From NCBI GenBank assembly GCA_964543035.1, contig CAZIVL010000001.1:303736-367735 (forward strand): DNA of 64,000 bases. Reading direction: 5' to 3'. The translations under genes and the position numbers were made by a program. Source of the DNA: an uncultured Gammaproteobacteria bacterium (GTDB lineage: Bacteria > Patescibacteriota > Microgenomatia > CAZETR01 > Amesbacteraceae). Under the pieces are notes generated by a model that made no database searches, was not told where the DNA came from, and worked only from the letters and a program-made list of their open reading frames with translations. Below, in pieces: positions 34,104-54,070 of this stretch (positions are counted from its first letter, which is position 1; each line of letters starts with the position of its first letter).

Positions 34104-36073
34104 CAGAATTCATTGATCACCAGCTAGTTCATTCACTAGAAAACGAGATCCCTTCCAAGCCAAAAAAGACAGGTAATTCTTGGATTTCTTTTCTTGGCAA
34201 AACCTTTTTGATTATTTTGATTGTTATAATTTCTGCCGGAGTATTAGGTTATTTCTTACTTCTTTCCCCCGCTCGTAAGCTCGCCACTTCTATCAAGACT
34301 CTTCAGGCCACTGGCATGGCCGTGGCTCCTTATATTAAGTCACAAGACCTGGCGGGAACCAAAGACCAATTGGCAAAAGTAGACACCGACCTAAAAGCCG
34401 TAAAATCAGATTTTGAAAAACTAGGTTGGACCAAAGCCATCCCTTGGGTCGGCAGCTACTACAAAGATGGGGCGCATGGTCTAGAGGCAGCCGAAGAGTT
34501 ATTGATAGCCGCCAATCTCTCTATCGACGCTATCGCTCCATATGCCGACGTCATCGGTCTCAAGGGATTAGCGACGACTGGAGACGGGGCAAAAACCGCT
34601 CAAGACCGCATCACTTTTATTATCAACACGTTGGACAAGATCAAGCCCCAACTGACTGATATTGCCACTCATATTGATGCAGCACGCATTGAAGCAGACC
34701 AGATTGACCCGGCTCGTTATCCCGAGGATTTTCGCGGCATTCCGGTCAGATCCCAGCTGACGACAGGTATCAATGTCCTAAATCAAGCTGCAGTGCTTCT
34801 TTCTGATGCCAAACCCCTTATCGAATCACTGCCCTACATGTTGGGCAAAGACGGCCAGCGCAAATATCTGGTGATCTTCCAAAACGATGCCGAGCTCAGG
34901 CCTACCGGAGGATTCATGACTGGTTACGCCATTATCAATGTTACCAATGGCAAGATTAGTGTGGTCCAATCTGATGATATCTACAAGTTAGACGAAAAAT
35001 TCCCCAAGAGGATTCCCGCCCCCGAACCCATCAAAAAATATCACCCCAACGTTCCTTACTGGTACCTCAGGGATCAAAACCTCTCTCCCGACTTCAAAGT
35101 ATCTATGGAGACATTCTTACCCAACTACGATCTCACCAAATCGCCCAAAGTGGATGGCGTCATCGCCATGGATACCCAAGTCTTAGTCGAGCTCCTAAAA
35201 GTGACCGGCCGGATCGGGGTTCCAGGTTATGGCAATTTTTCCGCAGACATCGATGAGCGATGTAACTGTCCGTCTGCTTTTTATGAGCTCCAGATCCTAG
35301 CCGGCGGTGAGGAGCCAGTCGTCTGGGATTCGGTATCCGGCAAGATCGTCCAAGCTCCCGCCAACTATGGTATCCGAAAGCAGTTTTTAGGTCCCGTCAT
35401 GTATTCTATTTTGGCAAACGTCATGGCCCAGCCCAAAGCCAAGTTCCCAATGCTTTTCCAAGCCGCCATAAATTCAGTCCAGGGCAAGCATGCGCTCATG
35501 TACTTCTACGATCCCAAGATTCAAGAAGCAGTCGAGAGCTTCAATCTGGCTGGTCGAATCACCGAGGCCGAAGGGGATTATCTAGCAGTTGTTGATACTA
35601 ACTTCTCCGGTGCCAAGACAAACATCTGGGTCAAGTACAAGGCAGATCAAAAGATCGAAGTTTCAGGCGACGGTACTGTGACAAAGACTTTGACTCTTAC
35701 CTACGACAATCCCCAGGAGGGAAATGTAAAGATCGACACTGGCCGCAAGCTCAACGGACTATTCAGGGATTGGCTTAGAGTGTATGTTCCCAAAGGCAGT
35801 GAGCTCATTGAGGCCAAGGGCTTTGAGTCAGGCCAAGCCACCAGTGAGGACCTAGGCAAGACCGTGTTTGAGGGCTTCTTTAGTCTGGCTCCGCTCAACA
35901 CTAAAGTCATTACTCTGAAGTACAAGCTGCCGTTCAAGCTCAGCTCTCCATATAGTCTCTTGATCCAAAAACAAGCTGGTACCAAGGATTTCCCCTACAC
36001 CACAACCATCAATGGTCGAAAGCAGCCCGAGATCATCCTAAACTCAGACCAAAACCTCAAGTTGGCCTACTAA
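34100..36073 (+). CDS. Large N-terminally anchored extracytoplasmic protein, DUF4012-like
   Basis: Single N-terminal TM, 657 aa, coupled to the initiating sugar transferase; name assignment from memory of the DUF4012 family architecture. Confidence 0.6.
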   Translation: MTEFIDHQLVHSLENEIPSKPKKTGNSWISFLGKTFLIILIVIISAGVLGYFLLLSPARKLATSIKTLQATGMAVAPYIKSQDLAGTKDQLAKVDTDLKAVKSDFEKLGWTKAIPWVGSYYKDGAHGLEAAEELLIAANLSIDAIAPYADVIGLKGLATTGDGAKTAQDRITFIINTLDKIKPQLTDIATHIDAARIEADQIDPARYPEDFRGIPVRSQLTTGINVLNQAAVLLSDAKPLIESLPYMLGKDGQRKYLVIFQNDAELRPTGGFMTGYAIINVTNGKISVVQSDDIYKLDEKFPKRIPAPEPIKKYHPNVPYWYLRDQNLSPDFKVSMETFLPNYDLTKSPKVDGVIAMDTQVLVELLKVTGRIGVPGYGNFSADIDERCNCPSAFYELQILAGGEEPVVWDSVSGKIVQAPANYGIRKQFLGPVMYSILANVMAQPKAKFPMLFQAAINSVQGKHALMYFYDPKIQEAVESFNLAGRITEAEGDYLAVVDTNFSGAKTNIWVKYKADQKIEVSGDGTVTKTLTLTYDNPQEGNVKIDTGRKLNGLFRDWLRVYVPKGSELIEAKGFESGQATSEDLGKTVFEGFFSLAPLNTKVITLKYKLPFKLSSPYSLLIQKQAGTKDFPYTTTINGRKQPEIILNSDQNLKLAY

Positions 36074-36125
36074 ATCCCCCTTGTCATCCTGCTCGCGAAG
36101 CGGAAGGATCCAGTACAATTCATTT

Positions 36126-36674
36126 ATGCATTCATATAAAGTCGAGGGAATAATTTTAAAAAGATCCAACTTTGGTGAAGCGGGTAAATTGCTGACTGTC
36201 TTCACTCGTAATCAGGGCAAGATTACGGTCAAAGCCGTGGGAGTCCGAAAAACTTTATCCAAAAGATCTGGCGCAATTGAGCTTTTCAACTATATATCTG
36301 CCGTTGTGATAAAGGGCAAAGGAGATCTGGATACTCTTGCCGAAGTCCAAGTCACCAATTCTTTTTCCAGCTGGCGCCCTCACATTGGCCGGGTGACTCT
36401 GGCTTATCAGCTAGCCGAGGTAATAGACAAGCTGACTCCAGATCACCAGCCCCACTCAGAAATACTGGATATCCTCATCTCGTCATTCTCTCAACTCGGT
36501 AACTTAACTGACGACTGGAAACTGACCACTGACAACTGGTTAGTAAATGTCATGCAAGAACTGGGTTATCTCGAAAGACACCAGGCTTTTAAAGGCGACA
36601 TCCACAAGTTAATCGAAGAGACGTCCCAAAGATCTCTCAACTCCCCCAAGTTGCTTTCAAAGCTAAAACAGTAA
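36126..36674 (+). CDS. recO: DNA repair protein RecO (short form)
   Basis: N-terminal OB-fold region VEGIILKRSNFGEAGKLLTVFTRNQGKITVKAVGVRK matches RecO N-terminus; no C-terminal zinc finger. Confidence 0.65.
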   Translation: MHSYKVEGIILKRSNFGEAGKLLTVFTRNQGKITVKAVGVRKTLSKRSGAIELFNYISAVVIKGKGDLDTLAEVQVTNSFSSWRPHIGRVTLAYQLAEVIDKLTPDHQPHSEILDILISSFSQLGNLTDDWKLTTDNWLVNVMQELGYLERHQAFKGDIHKLIEETSQRSLNSPKLLSKLKQ

Positions 36675-36688
36675 TATAATCCCAAACC

Positions 36689-36922
36689 ATGAGTCCTATT
36701 AAAATTGAGAACTCCGAACTTCGAGATGTGATAGTCAGAAAGCCAGCCTCTATTGCGATCGGGGGAATCCCGGTTAATCTATACCCCGATAATGAAGGCG
36801 GGCTCGTCGTAGTCCCCTCGTTAGGACTAAATGAATTAGGTCTTTCAGGCACATTTGAACTAAGTAATGGTTCAGTTATTGTAATCAAAGACACGCTCTT
36901 TACTGGCACAAGGGAAACCTAG
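36689..36922 (+). CDS. Hypothetical small protein
   Basis: 77-aa ORF between recO and the glyS promoter; no motif. Confidence 0.3.
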   Translation: MSPIKIENSELRDVIVRKPASIAIGGIPVNLYPDNEGGLVVVPSLGLNELGLSGTFELSNGSVIVIKDTLFTGTRET

Positions 36923-36928
36923 AAAAAG

Positions 36929-37095
36929 TTGACTGTAGACCTACAAAGAATCTATAATAAACATATCTATTACTTGCGATGATCCAAAATGGCATTTGGG
37001 GAGTAAGGAAGAGACAAAAAGAGAAGCAACTAGGGTGGAACCACGACGCAGCTCGTCCCTAATTAATGTATTATTAATTTTGACGAGCATTTTTA
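36929..37095 (+). promoter_or_regulatory. sigma70 promoter plus T-box riboswitch leader (glycine specifier GGC) of glyS
   Basis: TTGACT (36929-34) 18-nt spacer TATAAT (36953-58); specifier hairpin CCAAA/TTTGG with loop AUGGCA; T-box AACTAGGGTGGAACCACG 37028-45; hairpin GCTCGTC/GACGAGC + ATTTTTA ending at the ATG. Confidence 0.7.
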
Positions 37096-38370
37096 ATGGC
37101 TGACTTAATAGAAAAAGTGGTCTCGCTCTGTAAAAGGAGAGGTTTTGTATTCCCCGGTTCCGAAATTTATGGCGGACTGCAAGGATTTTATGACTACGGT
37201 CCACTAGGGGTCGAGATGAAAAACAATCTTAAGAGATTGTGGTGGAAATGGTACACAGTTGAGCACGAAAACGTGGTCGGTATCGATGGCGCCATCATCA
37301 CTCATCCCAGAGTCTGGGAAGCCTCAGGACATGTAAAAAGTTTTGTAGATCCCATGTCAGAGTGTTTCGACTGTCACAAACGGTTCAAAGCCGACGATCT
37401 TGAAGCCGGTCAAGCTTGTCCCAACTGTGGTGGCAAGCTGGGTGAACCCAAAAACTTTAATATTTTGATGAAAACCGAGTTAGGTGTCATCGAAGGTGAA
37501 AAAACTCCCACATATCTGCGTGGCGAGGCCTGTCAGACAATTTACCTGGATTTCAAAAGTGTAGTTGATTCTACTCGTGTCAAAGTCCCGTTTGGTATCG
37601 TCCAGATCGGAAAAGCTTTTCGAAACGAAGTCACACCAGGAAATTTCTTGTTTAGACAACGCGAGTTTGAGCAGTGGGATCTGCAGTGGTTTACCCATCC
37701 CGATGAGATGGATAAGTGGTTTGAGTATTGGAAAGAAGAGCGCATGAAGTGGTATCGAGGTTTATTCAATGATCACTCCAAACTCACCTTTTTCCAGCAC
37801 GACAAGCTGGCTCATTACGCCAAAAAAGCTTTTGATATCCAGTACGACGGTCGTGAGATGGAGGGTATCCATTGGCGCCAGGATTGGGATCTGGGCCGTC
37901 ACAGTGAGTTTTCCGGCCAGGATCTCTCGTACACCGATGAATCAGGAAACAAATACGTCCCCTGGATAGTCGAGACTTCCGGAGGTGTAGACCGAGCATT
38001 TTTATTTTTGCTCCTAGACGCCTATCTGGAAGAAGGGGATAGAGTCATTCTGAAATTACATCCCAAGCTCGCTCCTTACAAAGTGGCAGTGTTTCCCTTG
38101 GTTCGAAACAAACCAGAATTGACTGCCCGTGCCCAAGAGCTTTACAGACATCTCAAATTAGAAGAAGGCATCTCCACAGTCTGGGATGATCGGGGAAACA
38201 TCGGTAAGCGTTACTATGCCCAAGACGAGATCGGTACCCCCTGGTGTGTAACAGTCGATTATCAGACTCTGGAGGATGATACAGTGACTGTTCGCGACCG
38301 CGATACTGCCACCCAAGAGAGACTCCCCATCTCAGAACTTGACTCTTACTTCGCAAATAAATTAAAGTGA
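37096..38370 (+). CDS. glyQS: Glycine--tRNA ligase (alpha2 type, GlyQS)
   Basis: CKRRGFVFPGSEIYGGLQGFYDYGPLG N-terminus characteristic of dimeric GlyRS; class II motifs; 424 aa. Confidence 0.9.
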   Translation: MADLIEKVVSLCKRRGFVFPGSEIYGGLQGFYDYGPLGVEMKNNLKRLWWKWYTVEHENVVGIDGAIITHPRVWEASGHVKSFVDPMSECFDCHKRFKADDLEAGQACPNCGGKLGEPKNFNILMKTELGVIEGEKTPTYLRGEACQTIYLDFKSVVDSTRVKVPFGIVQIGKAFRNEVTPGNFLFRQREFEQWDLQWFTHPDEMDKWFEYWKEERMKWYRGLFNDHSKLTFFQHDKLAHYAKKAFDIQYDGREMEGIHWRQDWDLGRHSEFSGQDLSYTDESGNKYVPWIVETSGGVDRAFLFLLLDAYLEEGDRVILKLHPKLAPYKVAVFPLVRNKPELTARAQELYRHLKLEEGISTVWDDRGNIGKRYYAQDEIGTPWCVTVDYQTLEDDTVTVRDRDTATQERLPISELDSYFANKLK

Positions 38371-38426
38371 CACCAATACATTTATCGGTGTCATCCTGAG
38401 CATTGCGAAGGATCCAGTATAAATTT

Positions 38427-38918
38427 ATGAAAGCAGTTGTCGTAATCCTAATAATTGTAGTGTTAGCCCTGACAGGAGTATTTGCCGCAAAAAAGTTCGT
38501 AACCGGAGGCGCAAAAGTAGCTCCTACTCCCACTCTTGCCCCACTTCAAGAGTTGACCGAGGATCAGTACCCATCTGTAAAGTTGCAGTTTAGCTCGGAC
38601 GGCCACTATGTAACAGTAAATATTGAAAATCTCCACTCAGATCAGCTGGAATACAACCTGATTTATGACGCTGTGGTCAAAGGCAACAAGATCCAGACAG
38701 GCGTCAATGCCTCATCCAAGCTCGAGGGCAAGACGACTTATTCCAAACAGCAGCTTTTGGGCTCTGAGTCCTCAGGCAAGTTCACATATCACACCAATCT
38801 AAAAAACGCCGTCATGGAGCTCACACTTCGCGATGCTGGCAACAGATCAGTCTACTCCGCCACATATCCCTTCGAAGTCACCCCCGGCTCCTCAGTCAGC
38901 CTCAATCCTTCTGAGTAA
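38427..38918 (+). CDS. Hypothetical secreted/membrane-anchored protein
   Basis: N-terminal hydrophobic helix MKAVVVILIIVVLAL; start placed directly after motif copy C. Confidence 0.5.
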   Translation: MKAVVVILIIVVLALTGVFAAKKFVTGGAKVAPTPTLAPLQELTEDQYPSVKLQFSSDGHYVTVNIENLHSDQLEYNLIYDAVVKGNKIQTGVNASSKLEGKTTYSKQQLLGSESSGKFTYHTNLKNAVMELTLRDAGNRSVYSATYPFEVTPGSSVSLNPSE

Positions 38919-51064: not shown

Positions 51065-51075
51065 GTCGGATGTTG

Positions 51076-51238
51076 TATAATTATCAAGCAATACTTCGCG
51101 ATCAACGAAGTGCACTGGGGAAGAACGCTTGTCCTGAGCTTGTCGAAGGATCTTGCAAGTAGAACCCCACTCGAATTAAGAAGCAATCAAGGTGGTACCA
51201 CGCATTACATGCGTCCTTGTATTAATATATACAAGACC
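51076..51238 (+). promoter_or_regulatory. T-box riboswitch leader (isoleucine specifier AUC) of ileS
   Basis: TG-extended TATAAT 51076-81; hairpin CTTCG/CGAAG with terminal loop CGAUCAA (AUC+A at 51101-04); T-box AATCAAGGTGGTACCACGC 51185-51203; hairpins ACGCAT/ATGCGT and CTTGTAT/ATACAAG abutting the ATG. Confidence 0.65.
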
Positions 51239-54070
51239 ATGTTCAAATCAGTCTCATCTCAAGTAGATTTTATAGCTTTGGAAAAGGAGCTCCTCAAGTG
51301 GTGGTATGAAAGCGGCGTCGTAAAGAAATATCTTCAAAAAAACAAGGATAGTAAGACAAAATTCTCATTTTTAGACGGTCCAATTACAGCCAACAATCCC
51401 ATGGCCATTCATCACGCCTGGGGCAGGTCATACAAAGACTTGTGGCAAAAGTATCACACCATGAAAGGGGACGCCGGTCGTTATCAAAACGGTTTTGACT
51501 GCCAAGGGCTGTGGGTTGAAGTAGAAGTCGAAAAAGAGCTGGGCTTTAAGTCCAAAAAAGACATCGAGACCTATGGTGTGGCCAATTTTGTAAACAAGTG
51601 CAAAGAGAGGGTTTTAAAGTTTTCTGCCATGCAGACCGAACAGACAAAGAGATTAGGCAATTTCATGGATTGGGACAACTCTTATTTCACCATGTCCGAT
51701 GAAAACAATTATTGGATCTGGAAGTTTTTGAAGACTTGCTGGGAGAGGGGCTGGCTGTACAAAGGTCACGAGTCCATCCCCTGGTGCCCGAGGTGTGAAA
51801 CCGCTATTTCTCAGCACGAGATTCTGACCGAGGACTACAAAGAAGTCGTGCACGAATCGGTGTATCTAAAACTTCCATTGGTAAAAAATCCAGAAGAACA
51901 TCTACTAGTCTGGACTACCACTCCCTGGACCATTCCGGCAAACATCGCAGTGGCTGTAGACGAAAAGCTTGAATACGCTCTGGTGAATAAATGTTGGGTC
52001 GCAAAAGATGCGGTTGAGCGTCTGTTTGGCAAAGATGCTGTTGTTGAATCCACACTGTCAGGCAAAAAATTAGTAGGCCTCAAATACACCGGCCCTTTTG
52101 ATGACCTGCCCGCAGTTCAGGAAGTGGCCAGTCATCCTCTATTTCATACCGTCGTGGCCACTGATTCTCAGATCATGCCCATTACCATCACCGAAGGAAC
52201 TGGACTTGTTCATACTGCAGTCTCTGCTGGCCTGGAGGATTTTCAGCTAGGCAAAAAGCGAGGCTTACCCTTGATTCCAGTTATTCAAGATGACGCAAGT
52301 TACTTTGCCACCATGGGATTTTTATCCGGGAAAAACGCCAAAAAACATCCCGAGCTGGTGATCGACTATCTAAAGACTAATGACTATTTACTAAAGACTG
52401 AGCACTACAAGCATCGTTATCCTGGCTGTTGGCGTTGCAAGTCGGAGCTCGTTTGGAAAGTGGCCGACGAATGGTACATCGGTATGGACAAGCCCGATCC
52501 CACCCATCCTCAAAAGCAGACCCTAAGAGAGCAGATGGTCGAAGTTGCCAGGGAGATCAATTGGTTACCATCCTTTGGATTGGATCGCGAGCTGGATTGG
52601 CTAAAAAACATGCACGACTGGCTGATATCCAAAAAAAATCGTTACTGGGGACTCGCTCTTCCTATATATGAATGTGGCAGCTGTGGACATTTTGAAGTCA
52701 TAGGTGGCCGTGATGAGCTTCAGGATAAGGCAGTCGAGGGCTGGGACAAATTTGATGGCAACAGTCCCCACAAACCCTGGATCGATGAAGTCAAGATAAA
52801 GTGTTCAAAATGTGAGGCGACAGTCTCTCGCATACTGGATGTAGGCAACGTCTGGCTCGATGCTGGCATCGTGCCATTTTCGACTCTCCCCGCAGACTGG
52901 TTCCCAGCCGATTTCATTACAGAATCGTTCCCCGGTCAGTTCAAAAACTGGTTTTACTCCATGATTGTCATGAGTACCGTCATGGCCAAATCGATTCCTT
53001 TCAAGACCGTCTTGGGATATGCCACCGTTCTGGCCGAAGATGGCAAGCCCATGCATAAGTCGGCCGGCAACTATATAGAGTTCAACGAAGGTGCAGACAA
53101 GATTGGCGTCGACGTCATCCGCTGGATGTATGCCACCCACAAGCCCGAGGACAATATCCTATTCGGTTACAAAAAAGCTGACGAAACCAGACGTCAGTTT
53201 CATCTCATACTGTGGAACGTTTATAACTTCTTCATTACCTATGCAAATCTGGATAAATTCGAGCCTGAGAGTATCCCAGCCCACCTGTCAATGTCAGTTT
53301 TGGATAATTGGATATTTGTGCGGCTTTCCGAGACCATAAAATCAGTCACAGATTCCCTGGACAAATATGATCCCTTCGCAGCCTCGCAAGCTGTAGAAGA
53401 TTTTGTCTCGGACCTCTCGCTCTGGTATGTCAGGCGTTCCCGGGATCGCGTAGGTCCTACAGCCGTAGACCAAGAAGACAAAACATCTTGTCTCACTACT
53501 CTCTACACCGTGCTCACCACCTTGTCCAAATTGCTAGCTCCTTTTATGCCGTTTATGTCCGAAGAGATATACAAAAACCTTACCGGTGAGGAGTCAGTGC
53601 ATCTTTCCGATTGGCCCTCTTCCCAAAATCAAGCAGCTGCAGATCTAAAATTGATTGAGGATATGAAATTGGTCAGGAGGATTGTGGAGCAAGGGCTAGC
53701 CGCACGCAAAGCCGCCGGTATAAAAGTCCGCCAGCCACTCCAAAAAATTACGGTCACCTCGCCCGAGTTGGGGTCCGAGCTTGCTCAGCTCATAAAAGAC
53801 GAGCTAAATATCAAAGAAATAGTCTGGTCCAAAGGTGATGATCTGTCCGTCGTTTTGGACACTGATATCACTCCAGAGTTGCAAGAAGAAGGCCAGCTGC
53901 GCGAGCTCATGCGCACAGTTCAGGATCTGCGAAAAAGCCAAAACGCCAGACTCGACCAAAAGGTTATCCTTACTCTCATCGAAATGCCGACAAATCTGGA
54001 GGAACTCAAGCGCCAGGTATTGGCAAAAGAAGTAAGAGTTGGTCCAGAGGTTACAATAGAGTTGGTATGA
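51239..54070 (+). CDS. ileS: Isoleucine--tRNA ligase (divergent signature motifs)
   Basis: GFDCQGLWVE, WCPRCETAISQHEI...SVYLKL editing/CP1 hallmark, KMSKS-like PMHKSAGN; start at MFKSVSS after the T-box leader. Confidence 0.85.
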   Translation: MFKSVSSQVDFIALEKELLKWWYESGVVKKYLQKNKDSKTKFSFLDGPITANNPMAIHHAWGRSYKDLWQKYHTMKGDAGRYQNGFDCQGLWVEVEVEKELGFKSKKDIETYGVANFVNKCKERVLKFSAMQTEQTKRLGNFMDWDNSYFTMSDENNYWIWKFLKTCWERGWLYKGHESIPWCPRCETAISQHEILTEDYKEVVHESVYLKLPLVKNPEEHLLVWTTTPWTIPANIAVAVDEKLEYALVNKCWVAKDAVERLFGKDAVVESTLSGKKLVGLKYTGPFDDLPAVQEVASHPLFHTVVATDSQIMPITITEGTGLVHTAVSAGLEDFQLGKKRGLPLIPVIQDDASYFATMGFLSGKNAKKHPELVIDYLKTNDYLLKTEHYKHRYPGCWRCKSELVWKVADEWYIGMDKPDPTHPQKQTLREQMVEVAREINWLPSFGLDRELDWLKNMHDWLISKKNRYWGLALPIYECGSCGHFEVIGGRDELQDKAVEGWDKFDGNSPHKPWIDEVKIKCSKCEATVSRILDVGNVWLDAGIVPFSTLPADWFPADFITESFPGQFKNWFYSMIVMSTVMAKSIPFKTVLGYATVLAEDGKPMHKSAGNYIEFNEGADKIGVDVIRWMYATHKPEDNILFGYKKADETRRQFHLILWNVYNFFITYANLDKFEPESIPAHLSMSVLDNWIFVRLSETIKSVTDSLDKYDPFAASQAVEDFVSDLSLWYVRRSRDRVGPTAVDQEDKTSCLTTLYTVLTTLSKLLAPFMPFMSEEIYKNLTGEESVHLSDWPSSQNQAAADLKLIEDMKLVRRIVEQGLAARKAAGIKVRQPLQKITVTSPELGSELAQLIKDELNIKEIVWSKGDDLSVVLDTDITPELQEEGQLRELMRTVQDLRKSQNARLDQKVILTLIEMPTNLEELKRQVLAKEVRVGPEVTIELV

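Follow-up and report, generated by a model that had tools for sequence, protein, structure and literature searches.

How much of a T-box riboswitch is needed to place an aminoacyl-tRNA synthetase gene under the control of its uncharged tRNA? The question is raised by the leader of glyS, the gene of glycyl-tRNA synthetase (GlyRS), in a 64,000-nt stretch of contig CAZIVL010000001.1 (the window), which the original prediction described from the sequence alone as a glycine-specific T-box. Current models name three requirements, namely, for transcriptional T-boxes, a long Stem I platform that captures the tRNA quickly, then Stem II where Stem I is truncated, and Stem III in the discriminator (PMC7583486, PMC11404447). 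The window leader has none of the three. Nevertheless, we conclude that it is quite probably a functional minimal glycine T-box, which would make glyS expression depend on uncharged tRNA-Gly. The assignment to glycine is supported by the anatomy of the leader, a match to the Rfam T-box family RF00230, covariation among relatives, and a leave-one-out model of Stem I.

Anatomy of the glyS leader

We read the leader over positions 36700-37400 of the window and located each element by its coordinates (Table 1). The promoter TTGACT-18-TATAAT, the hairpin CCAAA/UUUGG whose AUGGCA loop holds GGC followed by A, the T-box element at 37028-45, and the hairpin GCUCGUC/GACGAGC that leads through AUUUUUA to the ATG at 37096 were all found as originally described. 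The promoter is the top-ranked promoter-like site within 36000-38600, and the predicted transcript start at ~36965 lies ~8 nt ahead of the Stem I structure. The open reading frame (ORF) beginning at ATG 37096 encodes a class II GlyRS (Pfam tRNA-synt_2b and HGTP_anticodon), the nearest named relatives of which are mainly proteins of Moranbacteria, Paceibacterota, Kuenenbacteria, Yanofskybacteria and Portnoybacteria with 71-77% identity, which points to a CPR/Paceibacterota-like source.

Table 1. Coordinates of the elements of the glyS leader and of the second T-box, before ileS, within the 64,000-nt window
Feature	Position	Strand	Basis
Sigma-70-type promoter, TTGACT (36929-34), 18-nt spacer, TATAAT (36953-58)	36929..36958	+	11/12 matches
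Ultrashort Stem I, 35 nt, kink-turn and 6-bp helix	36973..37007	+	sequence, RNAfold, family covariation, covariance model
Terminal specifier loop AUGGCA, codon GGC (36991-93) and conserved purine A36994	36989..36994	+	sequence
Purine-rich single-stranded linker, 23 nt, no Stem II, no Stem III	37008..37030	+	folding, alignments with L044 and L201
Antiterminator, A1 UAGGG/CCCUA, bulge UGGAACC (37036-42), A2 ACG/CGU	37031..37061	+	RF00230 alignment; -6.0 kcal/mol
Predicted terminator/occluding hairpin, GCUCGUC (37051-57)/GACGAGC (37082-88) and inner A-U helix	37051..37088	+	folding; L201 homology
AUUUUUA tail, U5 tract between hairpin and start codon	37089..37095	+	sequence
glyS, alpha2-type glycyl-tRNA synthetase, 424 aa, gene under the leader	37096..38370	+	Pfam
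Extended -10 TGTATAAT of the ileS T-box	51074-81	+	sequence
Ultrashort Stem I of the ileS T-box, ACUUCG-CGAUCAA-CGAAGU, AUC and A in the loop	51093-51111	+	sequence
Hairpin CUUGUAU...AUACAAG before ileS, no U run, ends 3 nt before ATG 51239	51216-35	+	sequence

Stem I stands on a kink-turn (K-turn), which was absent from the earlier description. The C-stem CUUGC (36973-77) pairs with GUAAG (37003-07) and is followed by the 3-nt bulge GAU (36978-80), the sheared tandem of G36981.A37002 and A36982.G37001, and an upper helix (36983-88/36995-37000) of six base pairs, composed of U36983.G37000 and the five Watson-Crick pairs CCAAA (36984-88)/UUUGG (36995-99). RNAfold predicts both the C-stem and the upper helix. 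A long Stem I with an AG bulge and a distal loop, the double T-loop elbow platform, is absent from this 35-nt structure, and the alignment to RF00230 deletes 93 model positions. A canonical long Stem I further upstream was also considered and ruled out, because the promoter leaves no room for it. The specifier GGC with its following purine agrees with the glyS gene downstream. The overlapping loop triplets AUG (Met), UGG (Trp) and GCA (Ala) were rejected as specifiers on the grounds of conservation and of the match between UGGA and the discriminator base.

Neither a Stem II S-turn nor a Stem IIA/B pseudoknot was found in the leader, and the 23 unpaired, purine-rich nucleotides between Stem I and helix A1 leave no room for them. 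A remnant of Stem II within this linker was ruled out by the same length and the lack of pairing. The linker retains the flanks of Stem III, AAGAG and AA, with only 4 nt (AAGC) between them. Neither folding nor alignment places a Stem III helix between these flanks, whereas most other members of the family described below have one.

The T-box sequence AACUAGGGUGGAACCACG at 37028-45 carries a 7-nt bulge and forms the antiterminator AGGG-UGGAACC-ACG-(8 nt)-CGU-CCCU at 37032-37060, where the RF00230 posterior probabilities are near 1. The first four letters of the bulge, UGGA, are complementary to a tRNA 3' end UCCA and thereby fit U73, as had been proposed, the discriminator of tRNA-Gly itself being taken from general knowledge. 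Among the tRNAs for Met, Trp, Ala and Gly, U73 is found in tRNA-Gly only. In a local scan with RF00230 the antiterminator scored 24.9 bits (E = 6e-4), below the gathering score of 93, and at the gathering threshold Rfam reported only a tRNA-Val and no T-box over the whole window, which is why standard annotation is silent. The RF00230 check suggested with the original prediction thus returned a significant local match without a call at threshold. This score is not a refutation, because the conventional glycine T-boxes of CPR3 (L013) and Dictyobacter (L012) also stay below threshold with 59-63 bits. The scores of 12 boxes in 11 related loci range from 31.6 to 63.5 bits, with 31-60 bits for other members of the minimal class.

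The 5' arm of the 3' hairpin reuses the 3' strands of A2 and A1 (37054-61) of the antiterminator, so that the two folds are mutually exclusive, and the competing fold that the original prediction depended on is therefore present. The hairpin is extended by an inner A-U helix (37061-66 with 37074-79). Its computed energy is -12.6 to -14.9 kcal/mol, versus -6.0 kcal/mol for the antiterminator. The means in TBDB are -19.5 +/- 7.9 kcal/mol for terminators and -7.4 +/- 4.2 kcal/mol for antiterminators (PMC7778990 supplement). Both energies of the window leader lie inside these ranges, and such an imbalance is usual for T-boxes.

Relatives of the leader upstream of glyS

Relatives were collected by two routes. 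One genome per species was scanned with the GlyRS sequence, giving 80 loci that are independent of any RNA pattern. Four of them carry a minimal Stem I followed by a T-box: L008 (Parcubacteria), L009 (Patescibacteria, in tandem), L044 (two boxes) and L047 (Saccharibacteria). L013 (CPR3) and L012/L017 (Dictyobacter) have a conventional longer Stem I with GGC. Metagenomes were searched with the pattern GA-N6-8-TGGCA-N6-GA-N28-58-AGGGTGGAACC, which demands no pairing and matched at least 120 loci. GA...TGGCA...GA and AGGGTGGAACC (AGGGUGGAACC) are fixed by this pattern, and their conservation in L081-L200 is by construction. Letter conservation therefore counts only in the protein-derived loci, whereas pairing can serve as a test because the pattern does not require it. 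Only three lines of evidence are independent of the pattern: covariation in the stems, the neighbouring glyS, and the loci obtained by protein homology.

Among the matches listed, the 38 unique pattern matches with glyS downstream form 6-10 of the 10 pairs of Stem I and C-stem, while those that lack glyS (66) cluster around 3-4 of 10, as expected by chance. Together with the protein-derived loci, the family comprises at least 45 distinct elements besides the window, all upstream of an alpha2-type glyS and all with GGC and a purine in agreement with it; counts out of 46 given below refer to those 45 and box 1 of L201, a contig introduced in the next section. The hosts are Candidate Phyla Radiation (CPR) genomes, metagenomes, and reduced-genome gut Bacilli.

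An initial MAFFT alignment of 41 Stem I blocks had gaps in the 5' arm and inconsistent pair columns, and it was dropped for an ungapped subset of 26 sequences that excludes the window. In this alignment the proposed Stem I pairing is formed in 81.5% of the cells versus 52.6% after shuffling, and 80 cells are changed on both sides versus 28 in the shuffles. The covariation score is 0.79 versus 0.24 for shuffled alignments (none of 500 shuffles reached 0.79), and registers slid along Stem I score at most 0.27. The covarying core consists of four base pairs and the C-stem; the position beside the G.A pairs is mismatched or holds a U.G pair, which is frequent in K-turns. The covariation among glyS leaders on which the original prediction proposed to be judged is therefore strong. 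A Stem I covariance model built from the same 26 sequences scored 36972-37008 at 23.2 bits (E = 1.9e-4), ranking it first on both strands of the 64-kb window, with a runner-up of 14.1 bits. Accordingly, an ultrashort Stem I whose terminal loop holds the specifier is backed by the sequence, by covariation and by a model that never saw the window.

The K-turn GA...GA is kept in the window box and in 8 of 8 boxes found through GlyRS homology (L008, two in L009, two in L044, L047, and two in L201). The loop is NUGGCA or GGGCA in 6 of 6 independently found boxes of L008, L009, L044 and L047, and GUGGCA in L201 box 1; GGC and the following A are invariant in all independently found boxes, and the base before U varies between A, U and G. 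The GGC loop and the T-box are thus retained before glyS in L008, L009, L044, L047 and L201, as anticipated. In the 26-sequence alignment, the loop consensus is Y-U-GGC-A-A, with a 5' flank that is always a pyrimidine and a 3' flank that is mostly A.

Measured from the start of the C-stem to the end of A1, family elements span 85-122 nt among the matches listed, and the smallest are L201 (85 nt), L109 and L126 (86 nt), the window (87 nt), and L083 and L191 (88 nt). Stem III measures 9, 5, 3 or 0 bp across the family; it is missing in L083, L109 and L126 and has 3 bp in L191, all of which precede an intact glyS. YUGGA, mostly as ACUGGAA/U, occurs in 15 of 46 linkers (among them L008, L082, L108, L119, L133, L137, L144, L176, L181, L044, L009, L113, L161 and L086), and the hairpins checked by eye place it in the Stem III loop. 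The UGGA of these linkers equals the bulge tetramer of the T-box, and YUGGA also resembles the T-loop pentamer; Stem III loops have been described as unconserved.

The A/T-rich members (L117, L126, L178, L186, L191, L199, L200 and similar) precede a different GlyRS lineage that is 41-46% identical to the window protein. The GlyRS of L117 is 86-87% identical to proteins from metagenome-assembled genomes labelled 'Bacilli bacterium', with contigs of ~1 Mb, and 79% identical to that of Candidatus Onthocola. Because these members belong to reduced-genome gut Bacilli, the minimal glycine T-box crosses phyla. The original prediction was thus right to place a glycine T-box in a CPR-like genome, but the class is not specific to CPR.

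The closest relative and the output of the 3' hairpin

The closest informative relative was found on Logan contig L201, whose GlyRS (P0002) is 95% identical to that of the window, with 83% identity in the coding DNA. The L201 leader (region 486-760) contains two T-boxes. Box 1 (486-590) is homologous to the window box with 80% identity over 82 nt, including an identical 31-nt block, AAAAGAGAAGCAACUAGGGUGGAACCACGAC. The differences are located in the loops and the 5' linker, and two Stem I pairs of the window are changed on both sides in L201, A36988-U36995 to G-C and A36986-U36997 to U.G. Box 1 has the same junction without Stem III as the window, and its terminator, CUCGUCCcUA/UAGGACGAG followed by U7, lies ~400 nt upstream of glyS. 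On its 3' side follow a second minimal T-box (loop GUGGAAU, specifier GGA), a helix sequestering the Shine-Dalgarno (SD) sequence, a 69-aa ORF (MKDK...) and glyS. The same tandem layout is seen in L044, and L009 has two GGC boxes in tandem. Tandem boxes with different glycine specifiers may sense two tRNA-Gly isoacceptors.

Alignment of box 1 of L044 with box 1 of L201 pairs AAGAG-(GCAAAGUU...AACUUUGC)-AAUAAGGG with AAGAG-AAGC-AACUAGGG, and it shows that Stem III was lost in the lineage of the window and L201 by a single clean deletion of ~22 nt. The box without Stem III appears to have been kept under selection since the window and L201 diverged, because the core is conserved and the differences in Stem I remain paired despite 17% divergence of the glyS DNA.

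Small hydrophobic ORFs of 60-75 aa are located between T-box and glyS in L047, L044, L201 and L206, where the charging of tRNA-Gly would control them together with glyS. No homology was detected among these four ORFs beyond the MKDK start shared by L044 and L201, and none that was useful between the small glyS-adjacent ORFs of the relatives and a 77-aa ORF of the window. In L206, positions 1-60 contain part of a T-box, AGGGUGGGACCGCG, which has a terminator with U7. Its UGGG bulge would suit a C73 discriminator, and its specifier lies beyond the end of the contig. Downstream of it come, in this order, a structured region, a membrane-like ORF of 61 aa, and glyS (GlyRS 79% identical to the window's).

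The sequence GACGAGC-AUUUUUA-AUGGCU at the end of the window leader corresponds to GACGAG-UUUUUUU-GUGGCU in L201. Since the homologous L201 hairpin is a clean terminator with U7, the 3' hairpin of the window is, judged by this homology, a transcription terminator by descent. Among the matches listed, 19 of the 46 family elements have a hairpin with U5-8 directly after the stem, and in L047, L163, L184, L189 and L190 an A separates the U run from the stem (stem-A-U5/6), just as it does in the window. At least 8 of the other 27 (L008, L082, L108, L119, L133, L137, L176 and L181) hide an SD (AGGA/GGAG) within the hairpin and lack a free U tract. The family chassis therefore serves both kinds of output. 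SDs are visible in the leaders of L008, L119 and L201.

The window genome hardly uses SD sequences: an SD-like tetramer (GGAG, GAGG, AGGA or AAGG, at most 20 nt upstream) precedes 7 of the 50 window ORFs of at least 150 aa. The earlier argument that the hairpin leaves no space for an SD is thus moot. With so few SDs in use, structure beside the AUG probably matters for initiation, a view supported by the hairpin just before the AUG in the window's second T-box, upstream of ileS (Table 1). The glyS hairpin, ending 7 nt before the glyS AUG, would probably occlude the start codon in addition to terminating transcription. The sequestrator of the original prediction survives in this part only, as the hairpin is homologous to a terminator and is followed by U5. 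We regard termination as the likely primary mechanism and start-site occlusion as a likely secondary one.

A purely translational T-box is the alternative that we weigh most seriously, although we consider it unlikely. Here the hairpin would act as a sequestrator of the landing site and the start codon, and the U5 would be incidental in an A/T-rich leader, with no premature termination. The short distance of 7 nt between hairpin and AUG suits this explanation, as does a genome short of SDs, in which accessibility of the start site likely decides initiation. The hairpin of the window's own ileS T-box (Table 1) has no U run and also ends close to the AUG, and, L201 aside, the T-box relatives with the most similar GlyRS are, among the matches listed, the eight that bury an SD without a free U tract. 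However, the homologous hairpin of L201 with its U7 can act only on transcription, because it lies ~400 nt upstream of glyS. Moreover, the stem-A-U5/6 layout recurs where the start codon lies further downstream, and in the hairpin form of the window leader the AUG and the preceding 7 nt are unpaired.

For a T-box acting primarily by termination, we infer as follows how the tRNA is bound, how its charge is sensed and how the output divides between transcription and translation. The anticodon GCC of tRNA-Gly would pair with GGC in the terminal loop of Stem I, and the K-turn at the base of Stem I would turn the purine linker towards the acceptor end of the tRNA. The 3' UCCA of an uncharged tRNA could then pair with the bulge UGGA and, with the purine string (AAGAG...AA), stabilise the weak antiterminator (37031-37061). 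This would block the pairing of GCUCGUC with GACGAGC, so that polymerase passes U5 and the AUG 7 nt on stays open. With a charged tRNA, the antiterminator would remain unstabilised, the hairpin, which is 7-9 kcal/mol more stable, would form, and transcription would stop in the U tract. In mRNA that is read through, the start region would be partly buried, which would be relevant where initiation is independent of an SD.

Comparison with known T-boxes and significance

The glyQS and glyS T-boxes of Bacilli (B. subtilis, G. kaustophilus, O. iheyensis; RF00230 class I) share with the window leader GGC followed by a purine, the K-turn (GCGAUGA...GA), the lack of Stem II and IIA/B, the UGGAACC bulge, an antiterminator opposed to a terminator with a U tract, and a glycyl-tRNA synthetase as the target. 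In contrast to them, Stem I of the window stops above the specifier, and a 6-7-nt terminal loop replaces the internal loop with its S-turn. The window leader also has neither the distal double T-loop platform (reported as required, PMC7583486) nor Stem III, and its start codon follows directly after the U tract. The missing Stem II of glycine boxes has been attributed to the strong GGC:GCC duplex (PMC7583486).

With the ultrashort (US) ileS T-boxes of Actinobacteria, the window leader shares a very short Stem I whose terminal loop holds the specifier, and the lack of an elbow platform, and part of the family (L008, L082, L119 and others) also shares the hairpin burying the SD. These translational T-boxes were reportedly described by Sherwood, Grundy and Henkin in 2015, with structures from M. 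tuberculosis, M. smegmatis and N. farcinica. Unlike them, the window leader combines GGC with glyS rather than AUC with ileS, has neither the S-turn domain of Stem II nor a IIA/B pseudoknot, keeps the K-turn, and lacks Stem III. A terminator-like expression platform is present in the window leader as well as in 19 of 46 relatives; the window hairpin contains no SD, carries U5 and ends 7 nt before the AUG. The actinobacterial ileS architecture invoked by the original prediction thus holds for the short Stem I and the position of the specifier, but not for the remainder. Canonical glyQS leaders are about as long as the M. tuberculosis ileS construct. The latter measures 166 nt through the antisequestrator (PMC11297988), versus 87 nt for the window core, which is thus about half as long as usual. 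According to a 2023 preprint, ileS is regulated by all US T-boxes (10.1101/2023.02.28.530422), and the class II model of TBDB was built for isoleucyl boxes and searched in Actinobacteria and in class I matches with truncated Stem I (PMC7778990).

The family consensus Y-U-GGC-A-A is formatted as a 7-nt anticodon loop (Y32, U33, triplet, purine 37, A38) that would meet the anticodon of tRNA-Gly through three G-C pairs. Complementary anticodon-anticodon loop-loop complexes between tRNAs are said to have been described by Grosjean and colleagues. The likeness is a physical analogy only, and the window loop has 6 nt (AUGGCA closed by A-U).

A literature search for T-boxes in the Candidate Phyla Radiation, Patescibacteria or Saccharibacteria found no paper, although most subscription papers lay outside the search and a prior description is possible; a search for the minimal, smallest or shortest T-box found nothing relevant. 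Thus, we did not find described what appears to be a widespread class of minimal glycine T-boxes, with the window among its most reduced forms.

The window contains a second T-box at 51074-51241 on the + strand, upstream of ileS (IleRS by Pfam). Its Stem I is followed by ~70 nt with Stem II-like pairing and by the T-box AAGGUGGUACCACG with a UGGU bulge. The RF00230 local score is 26.4 bits, below the gathering score. The true start of ileS is likely ATG 51239 rather than the listed 51209. By its sequence features, this box (~51093-51238) is an actinobacterial-type ileS T-box in a CPR-like genome. The two boxes together provide an internal control, with AUC and UGGU (Ile, A73) in the ileS box versus GGC and UGGA (Gly, U73) in the glyS box. 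At the end of glyS, a perfect 11-bp hairpin (38368-38393) overlaps the stop codon; it has no + strand U tract and is not a canonical terminator.

Several points weigh against a functional T-box before glyS. Transcriptional T-boxes generally need a long Stem I with the double T-loop platform according to the review by Zhang (2020), which also states that a truncated Stem I hardly binds tRNA in the absence of Stem II, counts Stem III among the indispensable parts, and holds that no appreciable tRNA is bound by an antiterminator on its own or without Stem III (PMC7583486); the window lacks Stem II and Stem III, the latter reported in every T-box identified to date (PMC11404447). The U tract is just 5 nt long with an A ahead of it and the AUG right behind, and a scan for consensus terminators did not call the hairpin, the loop of which exceeds the rule of the scan. 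The window arrangement looks like box 1 fused straight to the glyS start by a recent deletion of ~400 nt relative to L201. No tRNA-Gly gene was found in the window or in 30 family loci, and the GCC anticodon and U73 therefore rest on general knowledge. L202-L205, with GlyRS ~80% identical to the window's, have no leader before glyS, so that regulation by the leader is dispensable there. The leader is likewise missing in L043, although its GlyRS is 80-87% identical to that of L008, and in L002-L004, which have the most similar GlyRS of the protein-derived set (72-77% identity). In all of these leaderless loci recO or a small ORF abuts glyS. The patchy presence implies that the leader cassette is often lost or spreads laterally.

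Taken to the extreme, these points would describe a decaying relic, in which the fusion of box 1 and the loss of Stem III ended tRNA sensing and leaky read-through from the strong promoter gives constitutive expression of glyS. The parts reported as necessary (Stem III, and Stem II or the elbow platform; PMC7583486), the close relatives that manage without a leader and the fused arrangement found in the window alone could all be read in this way, yet we consider a relic very improbable. All functional motifs are intact, and the box without Stem III is shared with L201 despite 17% divergence of the glyS DNA, with an identical 31-nt core and preserved Stem I pairing. L083, L109 and L126, which have no Stem III, and L191 with its 3 bp also precede an intact glyS, and a stable terminator before an essential gene would be harmful without anti-termination. 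A mis-parsed element, with a long Stem I elsewhere or a loop meant for Met, Trp or Ala, can practically be dismissed: AUGGCA does hold the overlapping triplets AUG, UGG and GCA, but the promoter leaves only ~8 nt before the K-turn, GGC and A are invariant in independently found boxes where the flanks vary, UGGA demands a U73 that, by general knowledge, only tRNA-Gly has among these four tRNAs, and glyS lies downstream in all of the at least 45 family members.

Returning to the functional minimal T-box, we lean slightly towards the stronger proposal that an RNA of 85-90 nt suffices for complete and selective sensing of both the identity and the charge of a tRNA, with no elbow platform, Stem II or Stem III. 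Its parts would be a K-turn, a 6-bp hairpin whose GGC loop resembles an anticodon loop, a string of purines and the antiterminator. If true, this RNA would be the smallest natural T-box, and the supposedly indispensable parts would be accessories, at least for the all-G-C codon-anticodon pair of glycine. As the class drops the first two requirements of current models and sub-lineages drop the third, it would offer a direct test of which contacts are truly needed, as well as a scaffold of very small size, useful in structural studies and in the engineering of tRNA-responsive switches. It would also be evidence for amino-acid-responsive control of aminoacyl-tRNA synthetases in reduced genomes, both in CPR and in gut Bacilli.

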